From an uncultured Candidatus Saccharimonas sp. (GTDB lineage: Bacteria; Patescibacteriota; Saccharimonadia; Saccharimonadales; Saccharimonadaceae): 32,000 nt of DNA. Position 1 is the first letter of the stretch, and each line of letters opens with the position of its first letter. Below the pieces are notes generated by a model. It had not been told where the DNA came from. It worked only from the letters and a program-made list of their open reading frames with translations, and ran no database searches. Location: the NCBI GenBank assembly GCA_963528875.1, contig CAURWT010000001.1, positions 180,001 through 212,000 on the forward strand. The letters run 5' to 3'. Shown one piece after another: positions 1 to 27,634 of this stretch. A program made the translations under genes and the position numbers.

Positions 1-104
1 TAGATTCAAATGAAATTTTAAATCTTCCAAAAAATGAGCTTGAGTATTTACACCGGCAGTTTTTCCAAGCTGCGAAAGAAGTTTTTAAAAATCGATTATG
101 CTAG
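1..104 (+). CDS. 3' end of an unidentified CDS entering from the left edge (...DSNEILNLPKNELEYLHRQFFQAAKEVFKNRLC*)
   Basis: Frame 3 is open from the window edge to TAG at 102-104 and is followed by a hairpin terminator. The 33 visible residues carry no recognisable motif. Confidence 0.35.
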   Translation, partial: DSNEILNLPKNELEYLHRQFFQAAKEVFKNRLC

Positions 105-126
105 ATCCATATAGTATAAAATAAAA

Positions 127-159
127 GTCGCACAAAATGTGCGGCTTCTTTCTTTTTTT
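127..159. terminator. Bidirectional rho-independent terminator between the left-edge CDS and ruvA
   Basis: Stem gtcgcaca (127-134) pairs with tgtgcggc (138-145), with one G-U pair. T-rich runs follow on both strands. Confidence 0.5.
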
Positions 160-165
160 CAAAAT

Positions 166-741
166 TTAAATTCCAGCTTTCAGTGCCAAAGTAATGCGCT
201 CCTCTGTTGGTAAATCTCGCGGAATTTGTTCTAATGCTTTTGTTGCATCATTTAAATTAAACCCAAGAGCAATCAGAGCTTCTAAAGCCTCATCAGATGA
301 AAAATAATGAGGATTTTCAGTATTTTGTGATTTCGAAATCGCCATTCCAACTTTATCTTTTAAATCTAAAATTACACGCTCAGCTGATTTCTTACCAACT
401 CCAGATGCTTTTTGGATAAATTTTGCATCTTCGCAAGCAATTGAATTTCGAACATCTTCAGTTTCACCTAAACTCATAATTGCAACTCCAGCCCTTGGGC
501 CAATTCCTTGAACAGTAATTAAAAGTTCAAAAAGCTTTTTAGATGCCAAACTCGAAAAACCAAAAAGTTCTTGACTTCTATCGGTAATATTATGATATGT
601 GTAAAATTTAATATCATCGCCCAGAACTGCTCGTTCAAACTCATTTGCGGGAACGATAACTTCATATCCAACACCAGCAACATCCACAATCACGCTACCA
701 GCAAATTTTTCAACAATTTTTCCAGAAATATGTGCAATCAT
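166..741 (-). CDS. ruvA: Holliday junction DNA helicase subunit RuvA
   Basis: 191 aa. N-terminus MIAHISGKI...VDVAGVGYEV is the typical RuvA OB-fold start. Central helix-hairpin-helix segments (VQGIGPRAG, ASGVGKKSAERV) and a C-terminal domain III follow. Sits next to ruvC. Confidence 0.93.
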   Translation of the reverse strand: MIAHISGKIVEKFAGSVIVDVAGVGYEVIVPANEFERAVLGDDIKFYTYHNITDRSQELFGFSSLASKKLFELLITVQGIGPRAGVAIMSLGETEDVRNSIACEDAKFIQKASGVGKKSAERVILDLKDKVGMAISKSQNTENPHYFSSDEALEALIALGFNLNDATKALEQIPRDLPTEERITLALKAGI

Positions 742-771
742 TAAATTATTTTACCATAAACTCTTTAAGTT

Positions 772-1257
772 TTAAATACGCGTCATATAAAAATGCGTAA
801 TTGCAGCAGCGAGTGCATCGGCTGCATCATCTGGCTTCGGAATTTCAGCCAAATTTAAATTCGAACGCACCATTTCCTGCATTTGCTTTTTATTCGCTCC
901 ACCATAACCTGTTAAAGTTTGTTTAATCTGATTTGGAGTATATTCTGAAATTGGAATTTTTGATTGTTGAGCTACTAACATAGCCACACCACGAGCCTGA
1001 GCTACCGAAATTGCCGTTGTTACGTTTTTCGAAAAAAATAGTTTTTCAATTGAAACTTCATCTGGATTAGTTTCTGCAATAATCTCTTTCAAGCCATTAT
1101 AAATTTCTTCAAGCCGAATTTCAATTGGTGTATGAGCCGGAGTTGAAATAACACCACCAGTTACCATTTTTAAGGGCTTACCAATCTGGCAATCTACAAC
1201 GCCGAAACCCAAAATTCCAGTTCCGGGGTCAATTCCTAGAATTCGCCGCTTTTTCAT
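772..1257 (-). CDS. ruvC: Crossover junction endodeoxyribonuclease RuvC
   Basis: 161 aa. ILGIDPGTG catalytic-Asp start and C-terminal DDAADALAAAI motif are typical of RuvC. ATGA stop/start overlap with the upstream gene at 1254-1257. Confidence 0.93.
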   Translation of the reverse strand: MKKRRILGIDPGTGILGFGVVDCQIGKPLKMVTGGVISTPAHTPIEIRLEEIYNGLKEIIAETNPDEVSIEKLFFSKNVTTAISVAQARGVAMLVAQQSKIPISEYTPNQIKQTLTGYGGANKKQMQEMVRSNLNLAEIPKPDDAADALAAAITHFYMTRI

Positions 1258-2717
1258 TTTTTACCTTTTGAAAATTTCGCAAAAATATCTTTTCGAAATT
1301 CGAAAAATAAAATCGCTAAAAATACTAGAATCACAACAGCGATAATCCACCAACCCGTGAATTCGGCCTGTTTAGAATTTTCTTCCTCTTTTTTTACACC
1401 ATCACTAGCACCACTGTTTTTTACAACTTTTCTGCAACGATTCGTCTCTTCATTTCGCTCATATCCATCTTTACAAGGCGCTAGTTCTTTTTTAACTTCA
1501 TTACTGTTTTTTCTACAACGATTTGTTTCAGGATTTCGTGTATATCCTGGAGCGCATAAAACATCTTTTTTCGAAACTATTACACTTGAAATTTTTCGAC
1601 ACCTATTAGTTTCTGAATTGCGCTCATAACCTTCACGACATTCCAATGTAGCTTTTTCTACTAAAATTTTATTACATCGATTTGTTTCAAGATTTAAGAA
1701 ATAACCATTTTCACATTTTTTTTCTTGATTTTCTTCTTTAATCTTATTACAGCGATCAGTTTCTTCGTTTAAAAAATATCCTGCTTGGCAAGTTTTTTTA
1801 TTTTTTTCACAATGATTTTCAGAGTTTAAAAAGAATCCATCTTCACAAACTTGAAGAATATTTTCACTATTTTTTGTTATTTTAAAGCTTTGTTTCCATT
1901 CTTCTCCATCAAAAATCCAGCTTAAATTCTTCTTTGAGCCCTTCAATTCAATACTTTGAATTTCTTGTTTTTTTGAATTTAAAAGAATAATTTTATTATT
2001 GCCAGTTTTCGAAAATTTAAAACTATTTTCACTATTAAAATTAATTGTTAAAAAATCATTCGGTAAAATCTCTATATCTTTAAAATCTATTTTTTGTGGA
2101 TCTTTATTATTTCCTGCATAAATTTCAATCCCACATTTTTTAAGTGAAATTTTTTGATTTTTAGTATTTTTTAGCTCTAAAAACTGCTCATTCGAATTAA
2201 TTAAAACTTCGCTAATTTGTAAATTTTCACAAAAATCTTCTTCAATTTCAGCTAATCCGCCAGAACTAAAAATCACTTTTTTTTGTGAAATTTCAAAAAT
2301 ATCTTTATTAAAATTACGAATTAAAATATCATTTTTAGTAATTTCTGGCGCATTTTTTTCTTCGCACTTCATATTTTCTGCACATAAAAAATCAACTTTT
2401 TTGCCATCAATTTTAAGCTCAATCTGTTCACTCAATAAATCTTGACTCAAGATTTTTCCATCGCCATCTTTTTCGCTAAATAATATTTGTGCTTTTTTTA
2501 AAAAAATTCCGTTCGAAATTTCACCAATATTTTGATTATTCTGGATAATTTCAATTTTCGAAAACTGAAAATCTTCACCAAAATTTGAGATTTCCAGCAT
2601 TGAATTTGAAACTTTTGAAATTAAAATATTTTGCGTATTTAAAGCTTGAGTTTTATTTAAAAATCCCAAAAAAAGCGTAAATAAAACACTCAAAAAAATA
2701 ATTCTAGAAATCTTCAT
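1254..2717 (-). CDS. Secreted, C-terminally anchored surface protein with two LTD-like modules and six Cys-repeats
   Basis: 487 aa. N-terminal signal-like hydrophobic segment. ILISKV...LEISN and ISEVLINSNEQFLELKN resemble starts of lamin-tail-domain (LTD) modules. Six C-x2-G-[YF]-x-[RL]-N-x-E-T-[ND]-R-C-x-K repeats. C-terminal AEFTG + hydrophobic helix + basic tail. Confidence 0.8.
   Translation of the reverse strand: MKISRIIFLSVLFTLFLGFLNKTQALNTQNILISKVSNSMLEISNFGEDFQFSKIEIIQNNQNIGEISNGIFLKKAQILFSEKDGDGKILSQDLLSEQIELKIDGKKVDFLCAENMKCEEKNAPEITKNDILIRNFNKDIFEISQKKVIFSSGGLAEIEEDFCENLQISEVLINSNEQFLELKNTKNQKISLKKCGIEIYAGNNKDPQKIDFKDIEILPNDFLTINFNSENSFKFSKTGNNKIILLNSKKQEIQSIELKGSKKNLSWIFDGEEWKQSFKITKNSENILQVCEDGFFLNSENHCEKNKKTCQAGYFLNEETDRCNKIKEENQEKKCENGYFLNLETNRCNKILVEKATLECREGYERNSETNRCRKISSVIVSKKDVLCAPGYTRNPETNRCRKNSNEVKKELAPCKDGYERNEETNRCRKVVKNSGASDGVKKEEENSKQAEFTGWWIIAVVILVFLAILFFEFRKDIFAKFSKGKK
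1428..1847 (-). repeat. Six tandem coding repeats (about 20-28 codons each) of a two-Cys motif
   Basis: Repeat units: CEDGFFLNSENHCEK, CQAGYFLNEETDRCNK, CENGYFLNLETNRCNK, CREGYERNSETNRCRK, CAPGYTRNPETNRCRK, CKDGYERNEETNRCRK (aa 291-430 of the 487-aa ORF). Confidence 0.8.
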
Positions 2718-3714
2718 TTAAAAACTTTCTTTTTATTAAAATTGTAACTTCAAAAATAGCTAAGAAAATCAAATTTAAAACAAAATTATTATTTTCAGTT
2801 TTCAAAAATCCAGTGTTTGGTGCTAAAATTCGCCTCTGATTTTTTAAATTATCTATTTCATTATTTAACAAAATATCATTTTTAGTATTTTTTTCTGGCG
2901 GTTCTGGTTGCTTATCTTGGCTAAAAACTATATTTTTCTCATTTTTAAAATTATTTGAATCTTTAAAAATACTTTTTTCTTCATTTATATTAGCTTTATT
3001 TTCTTCTTTTCCCTTTTCAGAGTCCTCATTTTCAGGATTTAAAACTTTTTTATCTTCAGATTCATCTTCTCTTTTAGGAGCTTCAGGTTTTTTTTCTAAT
3101 TCATCTTTTTTATCGTTTAAATTTTCTGTTTTTTCAAGCTTTAATCCACCAAATCTTGGTGAATAATTATCAAGATTTCGTAAACCAAAATTATAATTAT
3201 TTCGAACTTCAGTAGTGGTCATCTTATCGCCGTTTTTGAGTATCTCAGCTTTCGAAACAGCAATTTTCTCAACACCATTATCACTTGGTTTTAGATCAGT
3301 TGAATTTTTAACCAGTCCTTTAATACATCTCTTTTTATCAGAACAAATATAATCTTTCAATTCACCATCAATATAAAGCCCCAAAATGGGTTTCTGACCA
3401 ATAGTATCAATATTTCGAAATTCTTCCTTAAATTTTACATCAGAATTCTGAGCATTTTGCGCAAAAGTCATATATTCTTGCGATTTAAAAATTCCATTTT
3501 GAACTTTTGCAATTTCAATTTGCTTTTGATTATTTTTAAGCGAAATTTCTTTAAATTTATAATCTTCACCACTATTAAAAAGTTCAACAAACTCCTTCGA
3601 ATCAGTAGCGTAAACTCGCGAGATATAGATCTTTTTATCTTCCGCAAAAGTATTTTTTGAAAAAATAAGAGCGATAAAAAAAGCAAAAAAACCAATAATT
3701 AAACTTTTTCTCAT
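2704..3714 (-). CDS. Secreted surface protein, paralog of the N-terminal module of the 487-aa protein, with a charged low-complexity stalk and a sortase-like C-terminus
   Basis: The ORF track starts at 3741, but AGGAGG lies directly upstream of the ATG at 3714 (MRKSLIIGFFAFF... signal peptide). IYISRVYATDSKEFVELFNSGEDYKF aligns with the neighbouring protein. E/K/D-rich region. C-terminal LAPNTG + hydrophobic stretch + KRK. Confidence 0.8.
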   Translation of the reverse strand: MRKSLIIGFFAFFIALIFSKNTFAEDKKIYISRVYATDSKEFVELFNSGEDYKFKEISLKNNQKQIEIAKVQNGIFKSQEYMTFAQNAQNSDVKFKEEFRNIDTIGQKPILGLYIDGELKDYICSDKKRCIKGLVKNSTDLKPSDNGVEKIAVSKAEILKNGDKMTTTEVRNNYNFGLRNLDNYSPRFGGLKLEKTENLNDKKDELEKKPEAPKREDESEDKKVLNPENEDSEKGKEENKANINEEKSIFKDSNNFKNEKNIVFSQDKQPEPPEKNTKNDILLNNEIDNLKNQRRILAPNTGFLKTENNNFVLNLIFLAIFEVTILIKRKFLNEDF

Positions 3715-3778
3715 TCCCTCCTCCTTTCCTAAAATGTCCAAAATATTTTAGCATAAACGAAATGAAAAATCAAGTAAA

Positions 3779-3809
3779 AATAATCTCACTCGCTTGGAGT
3801 GAGATTATT
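3779..3809 (-). terminator. Rho-independent terminator after rpmH
   Basis: Perfect stem aatctcact (3782-3790) / agtgagatt (3798-3806), extendable with flanking A/T pairs, followed by a T-run on the minus strand. Confidence 0.65.
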
Positions 3810-3810
3810 T

Positions 3811-3948
3811 TTAGACTGTAAGTCGTTTTCGGCCTTTTAGTCGGCGTCGTTTTAGAACTTTAATTCCAGCCTTTGAAGACATCTTATTTCGAAAACCGTG
3901 AGTTTTCGCACGATGTCGTTTATGTGGTTGATGTGTTCTTTTTGGCAT
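3811..3948 (-). CDS. rpmH: 50S ribosomal protein L34
   Basis: 45-aa ORF missing from the track because it is under 60 aa. My translation: [45 protein letters not shown]. The THGFR and KGRKRLTV motifs are canonical L34. Sits divergent from dnaA, the classical position. Confidence 0.9.
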
Positions 3949-3957
3949 ATCTATCCT

Positions 3958-3986
3958 ATTTTACAATTTAATATTTAAAAAATCAA
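3958..3986 (-). promoter_or_regulatory. Candidate rpmH promoter (TTGATT-17-TAAAAT)
   Basis: On the minus strand: -35 TTGATT (3981-3986), 17-nt spacer, -10 TAAAAT (3958-3963). The ATG at 3948 is only about 3 nt past the expected transcription start. Confidence 0.45.
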
Positions 3987-4065
3987 GTTGATTACTTTTC
4001 ATAAGCTTTTTAATCTGTTACTTAAACTTGAAATTTTACTAAATTCATTTTGTAGTATACCATAG

Positions 4066-4236
4066 TTTTCCACAAAAAACAAGGACTTTTCCACAGATAT
4101 TACAGTAGTATTTAAAAAATGTGGAAAAATTATTCTACTTTTCAAAAATTATAACATATTTTTTATTTCTTAAAATTTTAGGTTGTGGAAAACTCAAAAA
4201 TGTTATAGAATAGAATTATGAATGAGTTGTGGAAAA
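4066..4236. promoter_or_regulatory. Upstream DnaA-box cluster (oriC part 1 / dnaA autoregulation)
   Basis: Five 9-mers TTTTCCACA or their complement TGTGGAAAA at 4066-4074, 4087-4095, 4120-4128, 4184-4192 and 4228-4236. Each is one mismatch from the TTATCCACA consensus. Confidence 0.7.
4183..4211 (+). promoter_or_regulatory. Candidate dnaA promoter overlapping a DnaA box
   Basis: -35 TTGTGG (4183-4188) lies inside the DnaA box at 4184-4192. 17-nt spacer, then -10 TAGAAT (4206-4211). The expected start at +7 coincides with the A of the ATG at 4218. Confidence 0.4.
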
Positions 4237-5576
4237 ATATCTTAGCTGAACTCGAAATGGATCCTAAAATTCAAGGTGCGAATTTTAAGACTTGGTTTGC
4301 TGACACACAACTTTTATCTTTAGATAATGATCATGCAGTTATTGGTGCTAAAAATTCTTTCATAACTAACACTATTAAGAAAAAATATATCGAACATATT
4401 AAGAAAGCTTTTCGAAATAACGGTAAAAATCCCGAAATTATTTCTTTTGAGGTTATTTCTACAAAAAAGCTCAAAAAACAGGCCGAAGAAATCCCAGCAC
4501 CTTCTCTAAAAAAACCTTCTGTTGAAGATTTAATCAAGAAGAAAACTGAAAAAGCTAAACATTCTAGTGGTCTAAATAAAGATTACACTTTCGAAAATTT
4601 CATTGTTGGTGGCTCAAATGAATTAGCATATTTTGTTAGTCAAAATGTCGCAGAAAATCCTGGTAAAAAATATAATCCACTTTATTTTTATGGAGATTCC
4701 GGCCTTGGTAAAACACACTTAATGCAAGCGATCGGAAACGCAATTGAAGAAAAACATCCAGAAATGACTGTTCTTTATATTACAATTGAGAATTTTTATC
4801 GTGATTTTCTGGAAAATGTGCGTTCAAAAAAGCAAGGCTATGCCGATAAATATCGAAATGTTGATGTTTTAATTGTTGATGATATTCAGTTTATCTATGG
4901 AAAAGATAAAACTCAAGAGGAATTTTTTCACACCTTTAATGAGCTTCATCGCGTAAATAAGCAAATAATTCTTTCAAGTGATCGTGCGCCTTCTAGTATC
5001 CCAACTTTAACAGACAGGCTAAAAAGTCGTTTCGAAAGTGGAATGATGGTTGATATTCAGCTACCAGATTTCGAAACTCGCCAGAGTATCGTTGAAGCTC
5101 GCGCTGAACACGAAAAAGTTAAACTTGAACCAGAAGTTTCAGAATTTATCGCTGAAAATTATCGCACGAATATTCGAGAAATCATTGGAGCAGTTACTCA
5201 ACTAATTGCAATGGCGGAACTTAGAAACATCAAGCCAAGTCTCGAACTTGCACAAGGTTTAATTCAAAACAGCCGGCCAACAAGGCCAAATCACTTAAAC
5301 TCAAAAAAAATTATTGATAAAACTGCTAAGTATTTTGGAGTTTCGAAAGAAGATATTTTAAGTAAATCTCGGCAAAAAGATATTAATCATGCCCGTCAAA
5401 CAGCCTGCTATTTAATGAAGTATGAGCTAAAAATGAGCTTCCCGCAAATCGGTAAAGAATTTTCACGAGATCATTCGACCATTATGAATGGAGTTTCGAA
5501 AATTGAAAAAAGTATTAAATTAGATGCCGAAATTCGTTCACAAATTGAAGGATTAAGAGATTTAATTTATGAATAG
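4218..5576 (+). CDS. dnaA: Chromosomal replication initiator DnaA
   Basis: 452 aa. AAA+ Walker A GDSGLGKTHL, Walker B LIVDDIQF, C-terminal DNA-binding domain (RQ.AMYL-like ARQTACYLMK, DHSTIMNG). rpmH-dnaA-dnaN-recF synteny. Confidence 0.97.
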   Translation: MNELWKNILAELEMDPKIQGANFKTWFADTQLLSLDNDHAVIGAKNSFITNTIKKKYIEHIKKAFRNNGKNPEIISFEVISTKKLKKQAEEIPAPSLKKPSVEDLIKKKTEKAKHSSGLNKDYTFENFIVGGSNELAYFVSQNVAENPGKKYNPLYFYGDSGLGKTHLMQAIGNAIEEKHPEMTVLYITIENFYRDFLENVRSKKQGYADKYRNVDVLIVDDIQFIYGKDKTQEEFFHTFNELHRVNKQIILSSDRAPSSIPTLTDRLKSRFESGMMVDIQLPDFETRQSIVEARAEHEKVKLEPEVSEFIAENYRTNIREIIGAVTQLIAMAELRNIKPSLELAQGLIQNSRPTRPNHLNSKKIIDKTAKYFGVSKEDILSKSRQKDINHARQTACYLMKYELKMSFPQIGKEFSRDHSTIMNGVSKIEKSIKLDAEIRSQIEGLRDLIYE

Positions 5577-5579
5577 AGC

Positions 5580-6045
5580 TATGGAGGCTCTATTTTTATA
5601 TCTGTTAATTTGACAATAATTTTAGTTTAGTTTATAAAAAGCGAACAGTTATTTTTGTTCACTTTTGACTTTTTTGAATTATATTTTATTTATTTGTTAT
5701 AAAAATGTATGTTCTTCCCTCCACCCAGCTTGCAAAATATTATTTTTATTTCTTTATTATGTTTGACATTATTTCTATAATATTTTAATAAAATGTTGAA
5801 AGCCTGTGGAAAAATAGCTAATTTGTTGAGTGAAAGTTATTTAAATCTTGCCGAAAAAATCACCAAAGTTTTGCACAGGCTGGTTGTGCATATTTTCGAA
5901 AGCTTAAAATTATGGAAAAGTTATTATTTTTCCACAAAGTTTTTCAGAAAGTTTTACTTTGATTTTCCACACAAAAAATGGTATAATTTTAAGTAGTGAA
6001 AGCTTGGTTTTCCACAGTTTCCACAATACCTATTATTATAATTAC
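5580..6045. promoter_or_regulatory. oriC part 2: AT-rich region plus downstream DnaA-box cluster
   Basis: Very AT-rich stretch at 5580-5800. DnaA boxes at 5805-5813, 5928-5936, 5963-5971 and the tandem pair 6008-6016/6017-6025 (TTTTCCACAGTTTCCACA), plus a degenerate box at 5911-5919. A tattattataatta tract follows the last box. Confidence 0.7.
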
Positions 6046-6075
6046 CACTTTTTAAGAAAAAGGATTTAAATTTTT

Positions 6076-7170: not shown

Positions 7171-7177
7171 GATTTAA

Positions 7178-8225: not shown

Positions 8226-8239
8226 TTAAATAAAACGTA

Positions 8240-8911: not shown

Positions 8912-8914
8912 ATC

Positions 8915-20681: not shown

Positions 20682-20700
20682 AATTTAACCCTTTTGTCAA
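20672..20700 (-). promoter_or_regulatory. Near-consensus promoter TTGACA-17-TGaTAAAAT for the VirB6-like gene
   Basis: On the minus strand: -35 TTGACA (20695-20700), 17-nt spacer, TG (20679-20680), -10 TAAAAT (20672-20677). The ATG at 20663 begins 9 nt after the -10, so the transcript would be nearly leaderless. Confidence 0.6.
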
Positions 20701-20768
20701 CCTTAAAATTAAGTTTTTAGAATAAAACACTTGCTTTTTCCCTAAAAATGGTTTAAAGTATAATTATC

Positions 20769-21646: not shown

Positions 21647-21966
21647 TGAAAGAATATAGATTTTTAGCAGAAGCATCCTTTGATAAATCAAAAGTATTAA
21701 ACGGGATTGATACTTCAAATAAAAACAAAGCTAGCGATGCTTCGATGCAGAATGCTTTCAATACTGCTTTTATCTGGGCTGGAATTATCTGTGTAATTAT
21801 AATTATTGTGGCAGGATTAACATTTATAACGGCTGCCGGAAATCCAGGAACAATTTCGAAAGCAAAATCTGCACTAATTTACGCTTGTGTAGGTATTGTT
21901 GTAATCATATCAGCCGCACTAATTGTTAACTTAATTCTTGGCGGATTACTAACGGGGTCAATATAA
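21646..21966 (+). CDS. VirB2/TrbC-like T4SS pilin paralog 3 (no obvious signal peptide)
   Basis: 106 aa. TAATG overlap at 21644-21648. Hydrophilic N-terminus, then the core AGLTFITAAGNPGTISKAKSALIYACVGIVVII. Confidence 0.75.
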   Translation: MKEYRFLAEASFDKSKVLNGIDTSNKNKASDASMQNAFNTAFIWAGIICVIIIIVAGLTFITAAGNPGTISKAKSALIYACVGIVVIISAALIVNLILGGLLTGSI

Positions 21967-22514
21967 TGAAAAAAATAATTTTAATAAGTAGCATTTTATT
22001 CTCAATAATTCTATCACCTATTGCTTTTGCGGAAGGTGGAACTAATGGGACTAATGGTAGTGGAGGAACATTTAACGCTTGCAAACATGTTGTTTCTGGA
22101 AAGACTGCAGTTTGTTCTGGTGATTCAAAAAATGCTACAAATATTGCTAAAAATATAATCTCCATTTTCCTGTGGGTTGTTGGTATAGCGGCGGTTATTG
22201 TTATTATTTACGCGGGAATAACATTTGTAACAGCAGCTGGAAATCCATCAGCAATTGCTCGAGCCAAAACAATGATAATTTATGCTGTTATTGGTTTAGC
22301 AGTTGCAATTCTCTCTTATGCGATTGTTAATTTCGTTATTAACACTTCAAGTGGAAAAGGAGTTAATGGAGGACCATCTGGAAGCTCGGGCAATTCTAGT
22401 GAATCTAATAATTCAAGTGGCTCAACTAATACTGGATCACAAAGTAAAAACCAAAATGGTGAAAATAGTTCAGGACAAAGTTCAAGCGGTTCGAATAGCT
22501 CAAATAATAATTAA
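21966..22514 (+). CDS. VirB2/TrbC-like T4SS pilin paralog 4 with a S/N/G-rich C-terminal tail
   Basis: 182 aa. TAATG overlap at 21964-21968. Signal peptide, Cys pair (NACKHVVSGKTAVCSG), core AGITFVTAAGNPSAIARAKTMIIYAVIGLAVAILSYAIVNFVIN, then about 55 aa of S/N/G low complexity. Confidence 0.8.
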   Translation: MKKIILISSILFSIILSPIAFAEGGTNGTNGSGGTFNACKHVVSGKTAVCSGDSKNATNIAKNIISIFLWVVGIAAVIVIIYAGITFVTAAGNPSAIARAKTMIIYAVIGLAVAILSYAIVNFVINTSSGKGVNGGPSGSSGNSSESNNSSGSTNTGSQSKNQNGENSSGQSSSGSNSSNNN

Positions 22515-22534
22515 AACAATATAAGGAGAATAAA

Positions 22535-22924
22535 ATGAAGAAAATTTTAATAGCTTTTGGATTAATTCTTGCGGTGACTGGCTCTTTTGCCTTCAATGCT
22601 GGATTTTTCGAAAAACAAGCTTATGCAAATAGTGCAGCAGATTTAATTAAACAAGGTGCAGATTCAACAGGCCAACAAGATACTCGTTCAGCTGGTGATA
22701 TTGCTAAAGATGTTGTAAATATAATGTTCTTTATCATTGGTGTTATGGCGGTTATTATGATTATTTGGGGTGGAATTCGATATGTTCTTTCAGCTGGAAA
22801 TAGTGCTGCTCTCACTAGTGCGAAAAATACAATCGTCTACTCTATTATAGGTTTAATTATCGCAATCCTCGCATACGCAATTGTGAACTTTGTTATTAAT
22901 ACTGTTGCAGGCGGCAATCGGTAA
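22535..22924 (+). CDS. VirB2/TrbC-like T4SS pilin paralog 5
   Basis: 129 aa. AAGGAG Shine-Dalgarno upstream. Signal peptide, then core GGIRYVLSAGNSAALTSAKNTIVYSIIGLIIAILAYAIVNFVIN. Confidence 0.8.
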   Translation: MKKILIAFGLILAVTGSFAFNAGFFEKQAYANSAADLIKQGADSTGQQDTRSAGDIAKDVVNIMFFIIGVMAVIMIIWGGIRYVLSAGNSAALTSAKNTIVYSIIGLIIAILAYAIVNFVINTVAGGNR

Positions 22925-22985
22925 TCATAAGACTTCAGATTTAAGTTTGTTAAGTTGAATGATGGATGGCTAATAATTAAAATAC

Positions 22986-23013
22986 TTGCAAAATAGTAAA
23001 AATTTGATATAAT
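22986..23013 (+). promoter_or_regulatory. Promoter TTGCAA-16-TGaTATAAT for pilin paralog 6
   Basis: -35 TTGCAA (22986-22991), TG (23005-23006), -10 TATAAT (23008-23013). Confidence 0.55.
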
Positions 23014-23052
23014 TTAGGTATATATAATTTAAGAAAGGAAATGTAATTTAAA

Positions 23053-23469
23053 ATGAAAAATATTGTAAAAATGGCTCTATTGACCGCTGCGACAATATTC
23101 ACTGTTGGTGCTACTACACTTGTAACAATTCCAGCTTACGCTGCTGATTGTAAGGTTACTGGTGGTTTGAAATCTGCTGATAGCTGTGCTAAAGGTGTTC
23201 AAGAAGAAAATGGTGGTCCAACAAGCTTGTTTGATGGCGACTCTCCAATTTTCACGACTGCAATCAATATTATGTTATTTATAATTGGTATTCTTAGCGT
23301 GATTATGCTTATTTATGGTGGTATTCGCTATGTGCTTTCGAGTGGTGATGCTGGTGCTGTTCAAAACGCTAAAAATACAATTATGTATGCTATTATTGGT
23401 CTTGTAATTGCAATCCTTGCTTACGCAATTGTTAACTTCGTTATTCATTCGATTACTAATAAAGAATAA
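23053..23469 (+). CDS. VirB2/TrbC-like T4SS pilin paralog 6 (own promoter and terminator)
   Basis: 138 aa. Signal peptide (..IPAYA/AD), Cys pair (ADCKVTGGLKSADSC), core GGIRYVLSSGDAGAVQNAKNTIMYAIIGLVIAILAYAIVNFVIH. Confidence 0.8.
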   Translation: MKNIVKMALLTAATIFTVGATTLVTIPAYAADCKVTGGLKSADSCAKGVQEENGGPTSLFDGDSPIFTTAINIMLFIIGILSVIMLIYGGIRYVLSSGDAGAVQNAKNTIMYAIIGLVIAILAYAIVNFVIHSITNKE

Positions 23470-23483
23470 TAAAATAAATAAAA

Positions 23484-23509
23484 AGACTTCATTTTGCAGA
23501 GGTCTTTTT
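23484..23509 (+). terminator. Rho-independent terminator after pilin paralog 6
   Basis: Stem agacttc (23484-23490) / gaggtct (23499-23505), with one G-U pair, followed by a T-run. Confidence 0.6.
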
Positions 23510-23562
23510 ATTTATTCGAAAATTTGTAAATTTTAAAAAATAAACTGATATAATAAAAATCC

Positions 23563-23578
23563 CGAAGTTTATACTTCG
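23563..23578. terminator. Small hairpin downstream of hsp20
   Basis: cgaagt (23563-23568) / acttcg (23573-23578) with a 4-nt loop. T-rich flanks on both strands. Confidence 0.35.
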
Positions 23579-23592
23579 AGAATTTTATTTTT

Positions 23593-24060
23593 CTACAGAA
23601 CTTTAATTCGTGTTGCTTGAGTTTTAACCTTTGTAAAGCTGATTGTTAAAATTCCATCTTTCAACATTGCTTCAACTTCATCTTCTTTGATCGGAACTGG
23701 AAGAGTTAGTGTTCGGCTAAATTCTCCCCAGTAGCATTCTTGTGCATGATGAGCGATAATTCCCTCTTGATCACCAGGATTTAGACTTCCGCTAATCGTT
23801 AAAGTTCCATCTGAAAGTGAAACATCCAAGTCATTTTTATTCACACCCGCAGTTCGTGCTTTAACAAAAAGCTTATCTTCTGTTTCATAAACATCAACAG
23901 CTAATTGACCAGGAAGTTCATTTTCTTCTTCCGCAATTTCAATTTGTTCAGATCCGCTGAAAGCTTCGTTTTCTGAAGTTTCCATCAAATCATCCCCAAA
24001 ATTGAAAGCAGCTTCCAATTCATCATTCAAAAAGCTATCATCATTTTGTCTTCTAGCCAT
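23593..24060 (-). CDS. Hsp20/alpha-crystallin family small heat-shock protein
   Basis: 155 aa. LAVDVYETEDKLFVKARTAGVNKNDLDVSLSDGTLTISG...GILTISF is the alpha-crystallin domain pattern. Strong GGAGGAAAA Shine-Dalgarno before the ATG. Confidence 0.92.
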   Translation of the reverse strand: MARRQNDDSFLNDELEAAFNFGDDLMETSENEAFSGSEQIEIAEEENELPGQLAVDVYETEDKLFVKARTAGVNKNDLDVSLSDGTLTISGSLNPGDQEGIIAHHAQECYWGEFSRTLTLPVPIKEDEVEAMLKDGILTISFTKVKTQATRIKVL

Positions 24061-24151
24061 TTTTCCTCCGCATTAAATTTCCTAAATAAGATTAATTTAC
24101 TTTATTATACCGCACTTTTATTATATAATCAAGAGGTAGAAACGATTTTTT

Positions 24152-24805
24152 ATGAAGAAAAGCATATACGAAATAATTTTAAATTCTTTCGCACCAGATG
24201 AGTGTTATTTTTGCCAAAAATTAGGCGAACCTATTTGCAAAAAATGCCTTGAATCAAGGTGTAATTTTGGTAATTCCCTTTCTCGCTCGAATAGTATTAT
24301 CTCGAAAGAATTTTATCTTTCGAAAAGGTCTGGAGAGCTTCAAAAAATAGTTGATGAATTTAAATTTCAAAGCAAGAGGCAGAATACTTATTATCTCGCA
24401 AAACTTTTATCTGATTTTCTGCTTTCGAATAGCGAATTTATTAATAATCGTGAAAAATTAGTTTTAATTCCTGTTCCAACACTTTCGAACCACATTCGTG
24501 AACGTGGTTTAGATCATACTGAGCTTTTGGCTCGTCAGCTTGCAGAGAATCTAAAAATTGAAAAATCAACATTAATTAAAAGAATAGCAAAAACTACACA
24601 ACGTGGCAAAAATTTTAAAACGCGACAAATTCAGGCAAAAAGTAGTTATGAGTTTACGGGAGAAAAGCTTTCGAAAGATAAAATTTATGTAATTTTTGAT
24701 GATATTCGTACAACTGGTGCAACTTTAAATTCGATCGCAAACCTCCTCCATCAAAACGGTGCAAAAGAAATTTGGGCGTTTTATTTACTTCAGCAAGAAA
24801 AATAA
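24152..24805 (+). CDS. comFC: ComF-family protein (ComFC-like phosphoribosyltransferase-fold competence protein)
   Basis: 217 aa. N-terminal 4-Cys cluster (C..C...C..C) and C-terminal PRTase motif VIFDDIRTTGATL. Confidence 0.85.
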   Translation: MKKSIYEIILNSFAPDECYFCQKLGEPICKKCLESRCNFGNSLSRSNSIISKEFYLSKRSGELQKIVDEFKFQSKRQNTYYLAKLLSDFLLSNSEFINNREKLVLIPVPTLSNHIRERGLDHTELLARQLAENLKIEKSTLIKRIAKTTQRGKNFKTRQIQAKSSYEFTGEKLSKDKIYVIFDDIRTTGATLNSIANLLHQNGAKEIWAFYLLQQEK

Positions 24806-24806
24806 C

Positions 24807-24835
24807 TTGAGAATTCAAAAAAAATGTGATATAAT
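24807..24835 (+). promoter_or_regulatory. Promoter TTGAGA-17-TGaTATAAT for tRNA-Ser(UGA)
   Basis: -35 at 24807-24812, TG at 24827-24828, -10 at 24830-24835. The tRNA starts at 24847. Confidence 0.55.
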
Positions 24836-24846
24836 GGAAAATATCT

Positions 24847-24936
24847 GGAGAGGTGGCCGAGTGGTTGAAGGCACCGGTCTTGAAAACCGGCATGCGGTAA
24901 AACGTATCGAGGGTTCGAATCCCTCCTTCTCCGCCA
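24847..24936 (+). tRNA. tRNA-Ser (anticodon UGA), CCA encoded
   Basis: Folded by hand. Acceptor GGAGAGG/CTTCTCC, anticodon stem CCGGT/ACCGG with loop CTTGAAA, long variable arm, T-arm GAGGG-TTCGAAT-CCCTC, then G-CCA. Confidence 0.93.
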
Positions 24937-24944
24937 AAATAGGT

Positions 24945-24970
24945 AATTCTGCTTAACGGCAGGATTTTCT
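24945..24970 (+). terminator. Hairpin after tRNA-Ser(UGA)
   Basis: aattctgc (24945-24952) / gcaggatt (24959-24966), with one G-U pair, then T-rich sequence. Confidence 0.4.
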
Positions 24971-24987
24971 ATTTTAATAGAGATTTT

Positions 24988-25016
24988 TTGAATTTTTAAA
25001 TAGCTTATGGTATAAT
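24988..25016 (+). promoter_or_regulatory. Promoter TTGAAT-17-TGgTATAAT; the downstream gene would be nearly leaderless
   Basis: -35 at 24988-24993, TG at 25008-25009, -10 at 25011-25016. The ATG at 25026 starts 10 nt after the -10. No Shine-Dalgarno. Confidence 0.5.
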
Positions 25017-25025
25017 TAAAATATT

Positions 25026-25703
25026 ATGAATTTCGACAATGAAAACCGAAATGGCGTTCCTCGCGTAACGGGTTTGCCTGAATCACAATTTCGAACACCT
25101 GAGGCGGGTAGTTTTATGGCTGAAAACCCTAAAGAATCTACTGAGCCGGTTTTTGAAGAAGTTAAACCTTTTAATCCAGAAGAATATACACAAGTTCGTG
25201 AAGTTGAAAATAATCAATCGCCCACTGAAAATATTGCCGAAGAACGAGAAATTGTTAATTGGCAAGCTCAAGACTTAATAATTGGTGATAAAAATAAATC
25301 TTGGTATATTATATTTTCAATTATTATTTTAGCATTTTGTCTTTTTGCAATTTTGAACCAATCTTGGACTTTTCTTGCTTTAATTATAGTGTCAGCTATT
25401 GGAATTCTAACTCTTCGAAAATCAAACCACACTCAAATCATATCTTATAGTCTTTCGACGCACGGAGTTTATATGGGTGAAACTTTTCATTCCTATGGTG
25501 AATTTCGAGCTTTTGGTATTCGAAAAGAAACAAATACTTATGCTATTATTCTTTTGCCTAAAAAACGCTTTTCGCCCAGCACAATTATTTACTTCCCAAA
25601 GGAAAATGGTGAAAAAATCACAGATATTATTGGCGCTCGCCTACCGATGGAAGAAGTTAAGCTTGATTTAATCGATAAAATTATTCGAAAAATAAATCTT
25701 TAA
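25026..25703 (+). CDS. Hypothetical membrane protein (two TM helices followed by a small soluble domain)
   Basis: 225 aa. Acidic N-terminus, TM pair (WYIIFSIIILAFCLFAIL / WTFLALIIVSAIGILTL), and a C-terminal domain loosely reminiscent of bacterial PH-like domains. Confidence 0.7.
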   Translation: MNFDNENRNGVPRVTGLPESQFRTPEAGSFMAENPKESTEPVFEEVKPFNPEEYTQVREVENNQSPTENIAEEREIVNWQAQDLIIGDKNKSWYIIFSIIILAFCLFAILNQSWTFLALIIVSAIGILTLRKSNHTQIISYSLSTHGVYMGETFHSYGEFRAFGIRKETNTYAIILLPKKRFSPSTIIYFPKENGEKITDIIGARLPMEEVKLDLIDKIIRKINL

Positions 25704-25705
25704 TC

Positions 25706-25734
25706 TTGCAATATTTTAAAAAATGTGCTAAAAT
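25706..25734 (+). promoter_or_regulatory. Promoter TTGCAA-17-TGcTAAAAT for tRNA-Arg
   Basis: -35 at 25706-25711, TG at 25726-25727, -10 at 25729-25734. Implies a leader of about 50 nt before the tRNA. Confidence 0.55.
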
Positions 25735-25792
25735 TTAAATGTCTGCTTAGTGTGGAAGAACTTCAAAAGTTAGCTACTGAAAAGTAGCATAT

Positions 25793-25869
25793 GCACCTGT
25801 AGCTCAGCTGGATAGAGCGTTGGCTTGCGGAGCCAAAGGTCGTAAGTTCGAATCTTGCCAGGTGTACCA
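25793..25869 (+). tRNA. tRNA-Arg (anticodon GCG), CCA encoded
   Basis: Folded by hand, 77 nt. Acceptor GCACCTG/CAGGTGT, D-arm GCTC..GAGC, anticodon stem TTGGC/GCCAA with loop TTGCGGA (U33, G34 C35 G36, G37), T-arm GTAAG-TTCGAAT-CTTGC. Confidence 0.88.
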
Positions 25870-25877
25870 TAGAAAAA

Positions 25878-25902
25878 GCATCAGAGTAATCTGGTGTTTT
25901 TT
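25878..25902 (+). terminator. Rho-independent terminator after tRNA-Arg
   Basis: catcaga (25879-25885) / tctggtg (25890-25896), with one G-U pair, followed by TTTTTT. Confidence 0.55.
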
Positions 25903-25911
25903 CTATTTTGG

Positions 25912-25920
25912 TGATATAAT
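25912..25920 (+). promoter_or_regulatory. Extended -10 promoter TGaTATAAT placing the start on the ATG of the deacetylase gene
   Basis: The -10 TATAAT at 25915-25920 is followed 7 nt later by the A of the ATG at 25927. No Shine-Dalgarno. Confidence 0.5.
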
Positions 25921-25926
25921 CGTTTT

Positions 25927-27384
25927 ATGATTAAAAAAATACCAAAAAGAATAAAAAATAGTAAGATTATATATATTTCAATTATCATTTTATTACTTTT
26001 ACTGAGTGGAATTATATTTCTTAATAAAATTAACCATAATGTAGAAGAAAAACACAATCAAGATATTACAAAGTATTATTTTAAAGATTCGAAATATAAT
26101 GGAATTAGCTCAAAATTTATTGAAAGAAAAAATTCAAAAGAAGATGCTATATTAGAAATCCCTGTTACGAAGAATAATAAAATCAATGAATTTATAAATA
26201 ATAAAATTCAAGAAATTGATGATACTTTTAAAGATGATGCGAAAAAATCAACTTTCGAAAATATTTCAACTGAAAGAATTAGCTATCAAGTTTATTATAA
26301 TAACGATGATGCTATTTCAATTTTAATTTCAATCAAACAAGATACTCATGGAGCGAATTTGAATGATCAAAATTTATTTTGGACTTTCAATGCTAAAAAT
26401 GGAGAAATTATAAAATTTAGTGACTTTTTAAACAATAAAGAGAAAGATAAATCTAATATTTTAGAAATTATTAAAAATAAAATTCAAGATTATTTAAAAA
26501 ATAGTAAAAAAGAATTCTCGAATGAAATTTTGAATGATTTAGATTTTGAAAGTTTCGAAAATATAATAATATTAGATAAACAAACGATTGATTTCCCTTT
26601 CTCTAAAGGTCAAATTATTCCTTCTAATTTTTCTTCGGTTCAATTTCAAATTAAAATTTCAGAAATTTCTAATTTCTTGCAAAATGATTTTTCAAGAAAA
26701 ATATTCGAAGTTCCTGATATACAAAATTCGAAACAAGTTCAAAAGACAGCGCCATTAACTTCTCAATCTCCTCTTCTTGATAAAGATTGTTCGAAATGTA
26801 TTGCTTTAACCTTTGATGATGGACCGGGCATATATACTGATAAACTGCTTTCTTATCTTCAAAGTTATAAAGCGAAGGCAACTTTCTTCATGATTGGCCC
26901 AAGTGCTCAGAGATATCCTTCTATTGTAAAGCGAGTTTTTGATAATGGACATCAAATTGGTAATCATACTTGGTCTCATTCTTCCTTGCCAAGCCTATCT
27001 CCTGCGCAAATTCAAAATGAAATAGCCTCAACCAATAATATTTTACAAGGAATTACGGGTGTAAAACCTACTACACTTAGACCTCCATATGGTGCAACTA
27101 ATGCGGCCGTGCAAAGAGTTGTTTCTAATCTTGAAATGAGTTCAGTTTTATGGTCTGTTGACACTCGCGACTGGGCGGATAGAAATTCGAATATTGTTTG
27201 CAATAGAGCAATCTCGAACGTACGACCCGGTGCAATAATTTTAATGCATGACATTCACCGAACATCAGTTGAAGCGGTTCCATGTATTCTGCAGAATTTA
27301 AGTTCTCAAGGTTATCAATTTGTAACTGTTGATAAGTTGCTTGGTAATCTTCAGCCTGGGCATATATATTATTCAGCAAAATAA
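25927..27384 (+). CDS. Membrane-anchored polysaccharide (peptidoglycan-type) deacetylase, NodB homology domain
   Basis: 485 aa. N-terminal TM and a K/N-rich unknown domain of about 270 aa. The C-terminal NodB domain shows the motifs LTFDDGP, HQIGNHTWSH, LRPPYG and ILMHD. Confidence 0.88.
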   Translation: MIKKIPKRIKNSKIIYISIIILLLLLSGIIFLNKINHNVEEKHNQDITKYYFKDSKYNGISSKFIERKNSKEDAILEIPVTKNNKINEFINNKIQEIDDTFKDDAKKSTFENISTERISYQVYYNNDDAISILISIKQDTHGANLNDQNLFWTFNAKNGEIIKFSDFLNNKEKDKSNILEIIKNKIQDYLKNSKKEFSNEILNDLDFESFENIIILDKQTIDFPFSKGQIIPSNFSSVQFQIKISEISNFLQNDFSRKIFEVPDIQNSKQVQKTAPLTSQSPLLDKDCSKCIALTFDDGPGIYTDKLLSYLQSYKAKATFFMIGPSAQRYPSIVKRVFDNGHQIGNHTWSHSSLPSLSPAQIQNEIASTNNILQGITGVKPTTLRPPYGATNAAVQRVVSNLEMSSVLWSVDTRDWADRNSNIVCNRAISNVRPGAIILMHDIHRTSVEAVPCILQNLSSQGYQFVTVDKLLGNLQPGHIYYSAK

Positions 27385-27407
27385 ATCTTTATTTAATCTC
27401 TGATATA

Positions 27408-27416
27408 TGATAAAAT
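27408..27416 (+). promoter_or_regulatory. Extended -10 promoter TGaTAAAAT for tRNA-Ser(CGA)
   Basis: TG at 27408-27409, -10 TAAAAT at 27411-27416. The tRNA starts at 27426. Confidence 0.45.
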
Positions 27417-27425
27417 GTAAATATT

Positions 27426-27515
27426 GGAGAGGTGGCCGAGTGGTTGAAGGCGCACGACTCGAAATCGTGTATGCGGGCAACCGTATCGGGGGTTCGAATC
27501 CCCCCTTCTCCGCCA
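27426..27515 (+). tRNA. tRNA-Ser (anticodon CGA), CCA encoded
   Basis: Folded by hand, 90 nt. Acceptor and D-arm are identical to the Ser(UGA) gene. Anticodon stem CACGA/TCGTG with loop CTCGAAA, long variable arm, T-arm GGGGG-TTCGAAT-CCCCC. Confidence 0.93.
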
Positions 27516-27522
27516 CGAAAGT

Positions 27523-27545
27523 AGCTCGCGTTTGCGGGCTTTTTT
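27523..27545 (+). terminator. Rho-independent terminator after tRNA-Ser(CGA)
   Basis: agctcgc (27523-27529) / gcgggct (27534-27540), with one G-U pair, followed by TTTTT. Confidence 0.6.
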
Positions 27546-27553
27546 CGTATCTA

Positions 27554-27582
27554 TTGACTTTAGCTTTAGTGTCTGTTAAAAT
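27554..27582 (+). promoter_or_regulatory. Promoter TTGACT-17-TGtTAAAAT ahead of the 131-aa membrane protein gene
   Basis: -35 at 27554-27559, TG at 27574-27575, -10 at 27577-27582. Confidence 0.55.
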
Positions 27583-27634
27583 TGAAAGATATTTTTATAA
27601 ATAGTTCTTTTAGAAATGAGGTCAATGTCAATAT

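Follow-up and report, generated by a model that had tools for sequence, protein, structure and literature searches.

TTCGAA as a lineage-specific, highly iterated palindrome outside the cyanobacteria, in a Nanogingivalaceae-like clade of oral Saccharibacteria

Hyperabundant short palindromes that are maintained by a force at the DNA level have so far been essentially cyanobacterial, with the highly iterated palindrome HIP1 (GCGATCGC) as the example. HIP1 is preserved by selection (Xu et al. 2018, PMC5861425) and linked to methyltransferases (Elhai 2015, PMC4390886), and according to the HIP1 preprint literature, it raises natural transformation, an effect that depends on methylation, and covaries with pilus and competence genes; the sources used here for comparison (these two and the preprints Kamoku & Nielsen 2024 and Rodriguez-Cruz et al. 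2026) are all cyanobacterial. The present analysis concerns the hexamer TTCGAA in a 32-kb stretch of DNA from an uncultured Candidatus (Ca.) Saccharimonas sp., the whole of which is called “the window.” Judged by its genes and their relatives, the window is the dnaA/type IV secretion system (T4SS) region of an oral, Nanogingivalaceae-like Saccharibacterium, and the description that fits TTCGAA best is that of a “highly iterated palindrome” specific to this lineage, outside the cyanobacteria.

To our knowledge, sequence-specific uptake signals have been described in two families only, both of them proteobacterial. The DNA uptake sequences (DUS) of the Neisseriaceae and the uptake signal sequences (USS) of the Pasteurellaceae are 9 to 12 nt long, nonpalindromic, and recognized in the unmethylated state, in Neisseria by the pilin ComP; many DUS form inverted-repeat terminators between genes, and USS were reported to carry a protein cost at the motif codons. 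Campylobacter jejuni, with the orphan methyltransferase CtsM and the site RAATTY, discriminates DNA during transformation depending on methylation. We know of no description of a 10-fold, clade-specific enrichment with a population-genetic drive for RAATTY. The sequence TTCGAA itself, which is also that of the BstBI/AsuII-type restriction-modification (RM) systems, is a documented Type II N6-methyladenine (m6A) methylation motif, identical to the recognition sequence of M.SspP33I and M.SspP37I (PMC5930826), and was listed as a methylation motif in a thermophile metagenome-assembled genome (MAG; preprint). Proteins reading exactly TTCGAA in a symmetric manner thus exist in bacteria. No prior report pairing TTCGAA with Saccharibacteria was found in the literature searched.

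Counted exactly, TTCGAA occurred 99 times in the window, 98 times within positions 1 to 27,520 and a single time beyond 27.6 kb, at 28,577. Three copies were part of the universal GTTCGAATC in tRNA T-arms, leaving 95 non-tRNA copies. The original prediction, made from the letters of the window, had estimated about 95; its 14 sites in the VirB6-like gene, its 14 sites between 13.8 and 18.0 kb, and its two GVSK sites in dnaA were also confirmed by the count. Six and not seven sites were found in dnaA, the site at 3888 is located in rpmH instead of between genes, and a meaningful link of the motif to tRNA-Ser(CGA) was not supported, this being an ordinary tRNA with the universal sequence in its T-arm. 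The motif was also not uniform over the entire span claimed for it, since it stops at 27.5 kb, where a foreign island begins.

The number of copies expected in the window was 10.9 in a Markov model of order 0, 19 at order 1, 34.5 at order 2, 50 at order 3, and 90.6 at order 4. This comparison had been set beforehand as a check, and the excess persisted at order 3. The order-4 value is no refutation but circular, because the 5-mers TTCGA and TCGAA it is built from mostly sit inside the motif: 80% of TTCGA continued with A, and 83% of TCGAA were preceded by T. Among all 4,096 hexamers, TTCGAA was the most overrepresented (z = 29), and other 6-bp palindromes in the window reached at most about 3-fold of the expectation. 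The excess recurred in assemblies made independently of one another, from numerous samples and with numerous pipelines, so that it is not an assembly artifact.

Synonymous codons were then shuffled within each gene (1,000 shuffles), preserving the protein and the codon usage of the gene, which is itself already inflated by the motif. The core genes contained 91 copies of TTCGAA compared to 27.6 ± 4.3 after shuffling (maximum, 43 in 1,000). The counts per frame were 19, 21, and 51 compared to 6.4, 8.0, and 13.1, every frame being up about 3- to 4-fold, and the spacers contained 3 copies in 2,007 nt (23% G+C) compared to 0.59 expected (P = 0.02); the density was 3.6 per kb in genes and 1.5 per kb in spacers. 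Split by frame and coding status, the excess therefore appeared in all three frames and in the spacers and was not a dipeptide bias of one frame. An origin from codon or dipeptide usage was ruled out by the synonymous-codon shuffles, by codon-order shuffles, and by the intergenic excess. The codons TCG and CGA had been described as rare and residing mainly within the motif, which is partly right for TCG, half of which was embedded (51 of 101), and wrong for CGA, the commonest arginine codon with 100 copies, of which 21 were within the motif.

An artifact of composition, codon usage, dipeptide bias, or neutral context-dependent mutation could be read from the order-4 expectation and from the dominance of the frame nnT-TCG-AAn (51 of the 91 core-gene sites). 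It is hardly credible, since all frames and the spacers were up 3- to 5-fold under null models preserving protein and codon usage, the order-4 model reuses 5-mers made by the motif, and the same proteins are present in sister lineages without the motif. A mutational bias would also leave unexplained the skewed allele frequencies described below and their opposite pattern at control hexamers, and hexamers that are truly codon driven (CCACCA/TGGTGG) follow the coding strand. Tested in these ways, an artifact was not supported.

The hexamers just mentioned are an observation in their own right. CCACCA, CACCAG, and TCACCA were overrepresented clade-wide (z of 6 to 9) and bound to the coding strand as runs of GGT-GG glycine codons, for instance CCACCA at positions 899, 1154, 9069, and 14340 and TGGTGG at 6897, 7005, and 23160. 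This is an ordinary codon effect, and TTCGAA behaves otherwise.

Alignment of the 95 sites gave information only at positions −1 (T, 64%) and +1 (A, 62%) and about zero further out. A dispersed repeat element of the repetitive extragenic palindromic (REP) or miniature inverted-repeat transposable element (MITE) type was thus ruled out by the lack of conservation past position ±1. The form TTTCGAAA accounted for 42 of the 95 sites (44%), a plurality and not the majority that had been claimed for the T...A flanks. Sites with the full TTTCGAAA were retained between species no better than sites with other flanks, indicating that the unit is the 6-mer. Spaced half-sites (TTC-N1-6-GAA) and GAATTC were at background level, with only the contiguous palindrome being enriched; an 8-mer or a spaced half-site (TTC-Nx-GAA) as the true unit was supported neither by enrichment nor by retention. 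TCGA outside the motif was not enriched, and overall CpG was at expectation. A polar chromosome motif such as Chi or the FtsK-orienting polar sequences/architecture imparting sequences (KOPS/AIMS) was rejected because TTCGAA reads identically on both strands and shows no clustering at the origin, and the absence of clustering at oriC also ruled out a role in origin sequestration (GATC/SeqA-like). The T...A preference was strong in the genus of the window, with both flanks in 43 to 55% of the sites compared to 15 to 27% for neighboring words, and weak in the distant carrier L025 (30% versus 26%; L numbers denote the loci compared).

To place the trait among the relatives, DnaA-anchored loci from 79 species-representative genomes were used. 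All relatives with a DnaA identity of ≥80%, belonging to several species, had observed/expected ratios (O/E) of 6.6 to 11, and one Ca. Nanogingivalis MAG with 62% DnaA identity had an O/E of 12. Two MAGs at 59 to 60% and more than 50 remoter Saccharibacteria had an O/E of ≤1.8, often with zero copies. An independent set of metagenome contigs anchored on the deacetylase gave the same picture, with an O/E of 5.5 to 13 at ≥59% identity and no enrichment (at most 2.3) at ≤50%. Analysis of the relatives, which had been proposed together with the prediction, thus confined the excess to the clade: it is a clade-specific trait. The pooled outgroup Saccharibacteria (883 kb) contained 151 copies compared to 250 to 276 expected (O/E of about 0.55), which made TTCGAA the seventh most avoided of 64 palindromes. 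Avoidance is the usual fate of restriction-type palindromes. In the other sampled Saccharibacteria lineages, no iterated palindrome of comparable strength was found and no other locus exceeded a z of about 6, so that a general tendency of the phylum toward lineage-specific palindromes was dismissed. Mild and far weaker excesses were seen for ACTAGT (12 versus 2.4), GCCGGC (16 versus 3.7), and GCCGAC (50 versus 11.8) in L028, L059, and L057.

In a neighbor-joining tree of three genes, the motif-bearing genomes formed a monophyletic group whose sister was the motif-free pair L026/L028. In a tree of DnaA only, Ca. Nanogingivalis gingivitcus HOT-870 (L027, NZ_PRLK01000017) nested inside the motif-bearing group; its 3.8-kb contig contained no TTCGAA, had 27% G+C, and showed outgroup-like states at the relevant positions. 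This could be a loss of the trait, the result of two separate gains, or a (compositional) tree artifact. The distant carrier L025 (JBAQCW010000010, Ca. Nanogingivalis sp., 21 kb) had a CpG O/E of 1.67 and only 5 TTTAAA compared to about 17 expected, and this shortage may be avoidance of a DraI/AhaIII-type site.

The end of the window provides an internal negative control. From tRNA-Ser(CGA) onward, the motif collapsed in a strain-variable defense island, the 4.5 kb of which in the window contained 1 copy, where 1.5 would be expected by composition and, at the density of the core, 15.5 (P = 3e-6). On longer contigs, the gap was 5.8 kb (11600 to 17400 on L087), and the density resumed at once at pgi. 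In L097 and L102, the island was absent and tRNA-Ser(CGA) was directly followed by pgi, with full motif density in the island-free strain L097 (3.96 per kb). Its content varied between species as well as strains: the island contained only the 131-amino-acid (aa) open reading frame (ORF) in L100, L104, and L128 and this ORF plus the MmeI gene in L099; outgroup loci were not syntenic around tRNA-Ser(CGA). Recently or horizontally acquired DNA therefore lacks the TTCGAA excess. The MmeI-family enzyme of the window (941 aa in full length on longer contigs) was rejected as the cause of the motif, because it resides in a variable island absent from the full-density strains L097 and L102 and because the trait by far predates the island.

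A resident BstBI/AsuII-type RM system could leave such a pattern as a by-product, with the methylated chromosome tolerating the sites, incoming DNA being selected against them, and the excess having an unrelated cause. In favor of this, TTCGAA is among the classical restriction sites, it is missing from the mobile defense island, and the mild avoidance in other Saccharibacteria suggests that such enzymes circulate in the phylum. Restriction would account for an avoidance and not for a 10-fold excess, however: genomes with active enzymes normally avoid their own palindrome, and here avoidance was present only in the outgroups. Moreover, the island was at its compositional expectation and not below, and this scenario has no mechanism for the positive drive that was observed, all of which makes it very improbable.

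Maintenance of the sites was followed in protein-guided codon alignments of eleven genes. Compared to average same-frame hexamers, the sites of the window were kept more often in the other species with the motif (43% versus 23%, 72% versus 47%, 38% versus 24%, and 30% versus 11%). Each species also had private sites, meaning that positions turn over quickly while the density is held. As a same-codon control, serine codons that stayed TCN were compared; TCG was kept in 10 of 16 cases within the motif and in 3 of 19 outside (P = 0.006), and CGA was kept in 11 of 12 and 11 of 37 cases, respectively (P = 0.0004). The same-codon trend was repeated in two other species and absent in comparisons with motif-free outgroups. 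At very short divergence, codons within and outside the motif differed equally often, indicating a force on fixation and not on the mutation rate. Hypermutability of the central CpG of the 5-methylcytosine type was rejected, there being no short-term excess of loss.

Binding sites of an abundant dimeric nucleoid or chromosome-organizing protein, or of another genome-wide DNA transaction, would be conserved by ordinary selection, as Xu, Lawrence, and Durand argued for HIP1 (PMC5861425). The symmetry of TTCGAA fits a dimer, the sites are conserved, and they are genome-wide and denser in genes than in spacers instead of being associated with promoters. They were also spaced more evenly than random in the window, L001, L019, and L024 (coefficient of variation [CV] of 0.69 to 0.79, P of 0.001 to 0.04), which are three species because the window and L001 overlap and belong to the same species. 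This evenness is not universal, however, site positions change rapidly between species with the density kept, and the sites do not cluster at oriC or any other landmark. No candidate protein is at hand, and the motif-free state of a long-resident RM gene would stay unexplained. Such a protein is an improbable source of the excess.

Polymorphisms among about 16 strains were polarized with four outgroup species. Gains of TTCGAA (n = 19) had a mean derived-allele frequency of 0.59 (median, 0.77) and losses (n = 13) one of 0.17 (P = 0.002). Fifteen other WWCGWW control hexamers in the same pipeline displayed the opposite pattern, with 0.28 for gains and 0.67 for losses (TTCGAA versus controls, P = 0.0017 for gains and P = 0.00017 for losses), and this opposite behavior excludes a general CpG effect, a GC-biased effect, or a polarization artifact. 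A motif-specific directional force thus maintains TTCGAA and acts on fixation. That this force concerns DNA and not protein, as originally predicted, was borne out by the presence in all frames, the codon-aware null models, the motif-specific codon retention, and the derived-allele skew. Proteins are sometimes even altered to accommodate the motif. The amino acid identity to the outgroups was 48% at motif codons and 61% elsewhere (P = 7e-6), with changes such as VA to FE in DnaN and, at the two VSK sites of DnaA, VSK in place of the IEK/VTN or IPK/LSP of the outgroups.

Biased repair that is coupled to a methyltransferase and plays no part in uptake, as in Elhai's HIP model, would also yield just such allele frequencies and retention, since its bias resembles gene conversion. 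An orphan TTCGAA methyltransferase together with methyl-directed or very-short-patch-like repair would resolve mismatches in replication or recombination heteroduplexes toward the full site and thereby accumulate sites in the genome, possibly supplemented by selection for enough sites to direct mismatch repair. Cognate m6A methyltransferases of this exact Type II palindrome are known (PMC5930826), alternate HIPs track methyltransferases of matching specificity (PMC4390886), and 13 of the 19 gains were synonymous changes from TTTGAA or TTCAAA to TTCGAA. On the other hand, 5 to 6 of the 19 gains arose via outer positions or transversions, and the precursors TTTGAA and TTCAAA were not depleted but 2- to 3-fold higher than in the outgroups. 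The sum of TTCGAA and these two precursors (TTTAAA not counted) was 5 to 6.5 per kb in the clade compared to 1 to 2 per kb in the outgroups, or 3- to 4-fold. Simple conversion of a preexisting pool, which Vsr-type T:G repair would predict, therefore does not account for the motif, and sites must have been built from other sequences, too. Of the repair-bias footprint proposed earlier, the pure T:G-to-C:G form is thereby disfavored, and a Vsr-like footprint was rejected. The central CpG was without excess short-term mutability, the density of 3.5 per kb exceeds the saturation of roughly 1 per kb in the model (PMC4390886), and the reachable clade DNA (about 90 kb) contained neither a methyltransferase nor a nicking enzyme for this purpose. 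Biased repair on its own is an unlikely explanation, although it has more in its favor than a nucleoid protein.

With this evidence, TTCGAA can be compared to the known systems. It has the properties of a highly iterated palindrome: an excess, occurrence in all frames and in noncoding DNA, no longer repeat around it, and conservation between genomes beyond background. Like HIP1, it is a short exact palindrome in many-fold, lineage-wide excess within and between genes that horizontally acquired DNA has in low numbers or not at all, whose sequence is also a recognition site of the methyltransferase type, and whose host lineage is probably naturally transformable. It is not HIP1 proper, the motif being TTCGAA and the host a Saccharibacterium. 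HIP1 is a GC-rich 8-mer with a 15- to 300-fold excess in a phylum, whereas TTCGAA is a 6-mer with an AT-rich core and an excess of about 10-fold in a genus-to-family-level clade of Patescibacteria, in a genome that is probably smaller than 1 Mb, judged from the phylum and a 666-kb contig. A cognate methyltransferase and an effect on transformation are known for HIP1 and would be predictions for TTCGAA.

With DUS and USS, TTCGAA has in common a frequency of roughly one to a few copies per kb, confinement of the excess to a lineage, and depletion in recently acquired islands. Sites are placed preferentially where proteins tolerate them, sometimes with a change of residues, and the hosts recombine extensively and are probably competent; evenness of spacing beyond random is a feature of several of the genomes here but not of L017 and L025. 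The T...A flanks, present in the genus of the window and weak in L025, resemble the variation between uptake “dialects.” TTCGAA differs as a 6-bp palindrome from these asymmetric motifs of 9 to 12 nt, and preferential uptake was experimentally shown for DUS and USS and would be a prediction for TTCGAA. The closest mechanistic model for the explanation favored below is RAATTY of C. jejuni, a likewise 6-bp palindromic and very frequent m6A-type self-mark that licenses transformation; RAATTY is frequent largely because of the AT-rich genome, however, and its methyltransferase is known.

The favored explanation, with a probability of roughly 40%, is that TTCGAA serves as a self- or kin-DNA tag that is probably methylated, read symmetrically, and biases the uptake, survival, or recombination of transforming DNA. 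TTCGAA would be a symmetric Type II-like recognition sequence, and its reader most plausibly an (m6A) methyltransferase with specificity for TTCGAA, or else a different dimeric DNA-binding protein, the gene being located in another part of the genome. DNA fragments with the (methylated) motif would be preferentially taken up, protected, or recombined during natural transformation, and repeated exchange among strains and species, mediated by ComEC, ComF, and RecA, would drive the motif to its high and fairly even density and hold it there. Such a molecular drive has been proposed for USS/DUS and recently for methylated HIP1.

Indirect support for a connection to uptake and transformation comes from the comF-family gene, the mosaic recombination, the motif-free variable island, and the HIP1 precedent. 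The comF-family gene was the motif-densest gene of the window (4 sites, 6.1 per kb) and matched TIGR00201 (comF family) with E = 4e-24, although below the curated cutoff of NCBIfam. Genes for recA, recX, ruvB, and a T2SSE/PilB-type ATPase reside just upstream of the window. The identity of window positions 1 to 15660 to L017, L019, L021, and L024 was a mosaic from gene to gene, for instance 98% for ruvC, 82% for dnaA, 64% for recF, and 96% for the lysozyme gene in L024 or 99% for dnaN and 91% for dnaA in L019, which indicates frequent homologous recombination between species. ComEC-dependent natural transformation was shown experimentally in Saccharibacteria (PMC10633639).

A number of points weigh against a tag of this kind. 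The allele-frequency and retention signals cannot separate an uptake drive from biased repair of recombination heteroduplexes or from ordinary selection for a different function of the sites. All experimentally established uptake sequences we know of are asymmetric and 9 to 12 nt in length, and a 6-mer provides little specificity. Even spacing was absent in two trait-bearing species, L017 and L025 (CV of >1). No TTCGAA methyltransferase, nuclease, or receptor was found in about 90 kb of clade DNA, and the nonsyntenic ORFs of L009 to L025 and L096 to L128 contained no DNA methyltransferase besides the MmeI-type enzyme of the island; they encoded an aspartyl-tRNA synthetase, ABC transporters, TrmB-like and RlmH-like RNA methylases, a MurE-like ligase, a glucose-6-phosphate dehydrogenase, and a HIT protein. 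The MmeI gene was without TTCGAA in three copies that were 75 to 79% identical, although their genomes had 2 to 4 sites per kb; copies were located in the window (Table 1), in L087 (14445 to 17270), in L096 (4387 to 7185), and in L099 (12150 to 14969). This suggests repeated import from outside the clade or an exemption from the drive. Finally, readily transforming cultured Saccharibacteria received DNA without a special motif (PMC10633639), so that specificity of uptake is not a trait of the phylum.

The three earlier hypotheses, an uptake signal, a methylation or protein site, and a repair bias, are the right candidates, among which sequence alone does not decide. The most specific version, a kin-recognition or uptake tag TTCGAA, probably TTCGA(m6)A, that evolved independently of DUS, USS, and HIP1, is doubtful but would have consequences. 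It would be without precedent in the candidate phyla radiation, no earlier tag of this type would consist of just a 6-bp restriction-site palindrome, and the patchy spread (the genus of the window and one Nanogingivalis MAG but not the sister MAGs) would mean gain or loss of a single transferable determinant.

The features of the window are listed in Table 1.

Table 1. Positions of TTCGAA sites, genes, and the variable island in the 32-kb window
Feature	Position	Strand	Remarks
Motif-rich core chromosome	1..27520	n/a	98 TTCGAA, 95 outside tRNAs, 3.5 per kb, 42 as TTTCGAAA
TTCGAA starts, part 1	332, 447, 860, 1028, 1292, 1299, 1570, 2008, 2191, 2512, 2557, 3201, 3251, 3414, 3596, 3888, 4411, 4590, 5031, 5070, 5342, 5495, 5895		
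TTCGAA starts, part 2	6619, 6637, 6933, 7209, 7380, 7523, 7684, 7855, 8140, 8349, 8651, 8672, 9678, 10043, 10645, 11166, 11715, 11921, 12224, 13517, 13714, 13973		
TTCGAA starts, part 3	14412, 14718, 14832, 15156, 15701, 15910, 16487, 16786, 16844, 17054, 17354, 17670, 17923, 18178, 18292, 18510, 18553, 18640, 19069, 19081, 19444, 19548, 19903		
TTCGAA starts, part 4	20179, 20257, 20557, 20615, 20849, 21116, 21271, 21462, 21855, 22490, 22607, 23515, 24319, 24424, 24484, 24670, 24914, 25090, 25414, 25519, 25684, 25847, 26088, 26254, 26554, 26704, 26727, 26790, 27186, 27493		
dnaA	4218..5576	+	6 TTCGAA in all three frames (AFRN, TFEN, RFES, DFET, GVSK, GVSK)
TTCGAA in dnaA-dnaN spacer	5895..5900		oriC-type region with DnaA-box-like sites
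Intergenic TTCGAA, spacer between PrgI-like and VirB6-like genes	17923..17928		
VirB6/TrbL_3-like T4SS gene	17976..20681	-	14 TTCGAA, 5.2 per kb, 11/14 in frame nnT-TCG-AAn; Pfam TrbL_3
Intergenic TTCGAA, spacer between pilin gene and hsp20	23515..23520		
ComF-family (ComFC-like) gene, phosphoribosyltransferase fold	24152..24805	+	Pfam Pribosyltran, PRTase_3 ComF-like; 4 TTCGAA
tRNA-Ser(UGA)	24847..24936	+	T-arm TTCGAA at 24914, excluded from counts
tRNA-Arg(GCG)	25793..25869	+	T-arm TTCGAA at 25847, excluded from counts
tRNA-Ser(CGA)	27426..27515	+	T-arm TTCGAA at 27493; boundary of motif-rich core and island
Strain-variable defense island	27520..32000		Ends at about 33.3 kb, before pgi and about 1.3 kb outside the window
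131-aa ORF (island)	27635..28030	+	
PDC-S56 homologue (island)	28431..30293	-	PADLOC candidate defense family, E = 7e-114
MmeI-family Type IIG/IIL RM (island)	30371..31948	-	Pfam; N terminus beyond the window

The window is densely coding with 33.5% G+C and begins with ruvA and ruvC, two surface-type proteins of unassigned function, and rpmH, followed by dnaA, dnaN, and recF with DnaA-box-like sites in the spacers flanking this block. Then follows a monoderm-type T4SS cluster with genes for a phage-tail-lysozyme/GDSL protein, an M23 peptidase, VirB4, a TraC-like, a PrgI-like, and the TrbL/VirB6-like protein, and six T4SS-pilin paralogues. The position next to dnaA and the absence of a relaxase gene are typical of Patescibacteria (PMC12102498). 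Next come hsp20, the ComF-family gene, tRNA-Ser(UGA), tRNA-Arg(GCG), a polysaccharide deacetylase gene, and tRNA-Ser(CGA); the 3' end is formed by the 131-aa ORF, a 620-aa ORF, and the truncated MmeI-family gene. Many assemblies of human metagenomes contained proteins identical to those of the window, the contigs being up to 290 kb long. Among the species-representative genomes, DnaA was 100 to 98% identical to that of “Candidatus Saccharimonas sp.” oral MAGs, 93% to that of a “Candidatus Nanogingivalaceae bacterium,” and 62% to that of Ca. Nanogingivalis (TM7 group G6).

The six tandem pilin paralogues occupy positions 20769 to 23469 in the window and 4843 to 7543 in L086 and L087. The allele sets differed between strains with an identical deacetylase (149/130/106/182/129/132 aa versus 144/142/106/140/129/138 aa), which suggests rapid diversification of the pilins. 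The anticodon of the tRNA-Arg is GCG and not the usual bacterial ACG, and yet CGA is the commonest arginine codon, so that a gene for tRNA-Arg(UCG) has to exist outside the window. In two further species of the clade (L128, 8747 to 8838; L103, 8830 to 8920), ARAGORN returned a “tRNA-???” with a four-base anticodon (tgaa) where tRNA-Ser(UGA) is located in the window; a larger anticodon loop or an error of the prediction could be behind this.

What is new here is a sequence of the iterated-palindrome/uptake-signal kind in a new phylum, with a restriction-site-like AT-rich core. TTCGAA looks like a clean, independent case in an ultrasmall epibiotic bacterium of the human mouth, for which motif-free sister lineages, a variable island as negative control, and population data from public oral metagenomes offer useful comparisons, so that the function and spread of iterated palindromes become testable by comparative genomics. 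The density of the motif is a ready signature by which DNA of this clade can be binned and horizontal acquisitions in it recognized. Natural transformation is just beginning to make Saccharibacteria amenable to genetics, and if TTCGAA, methylated or not, promotes uptake or recombination, constructs supplied with the motif could make this uncultured clade accessible to genetic work.

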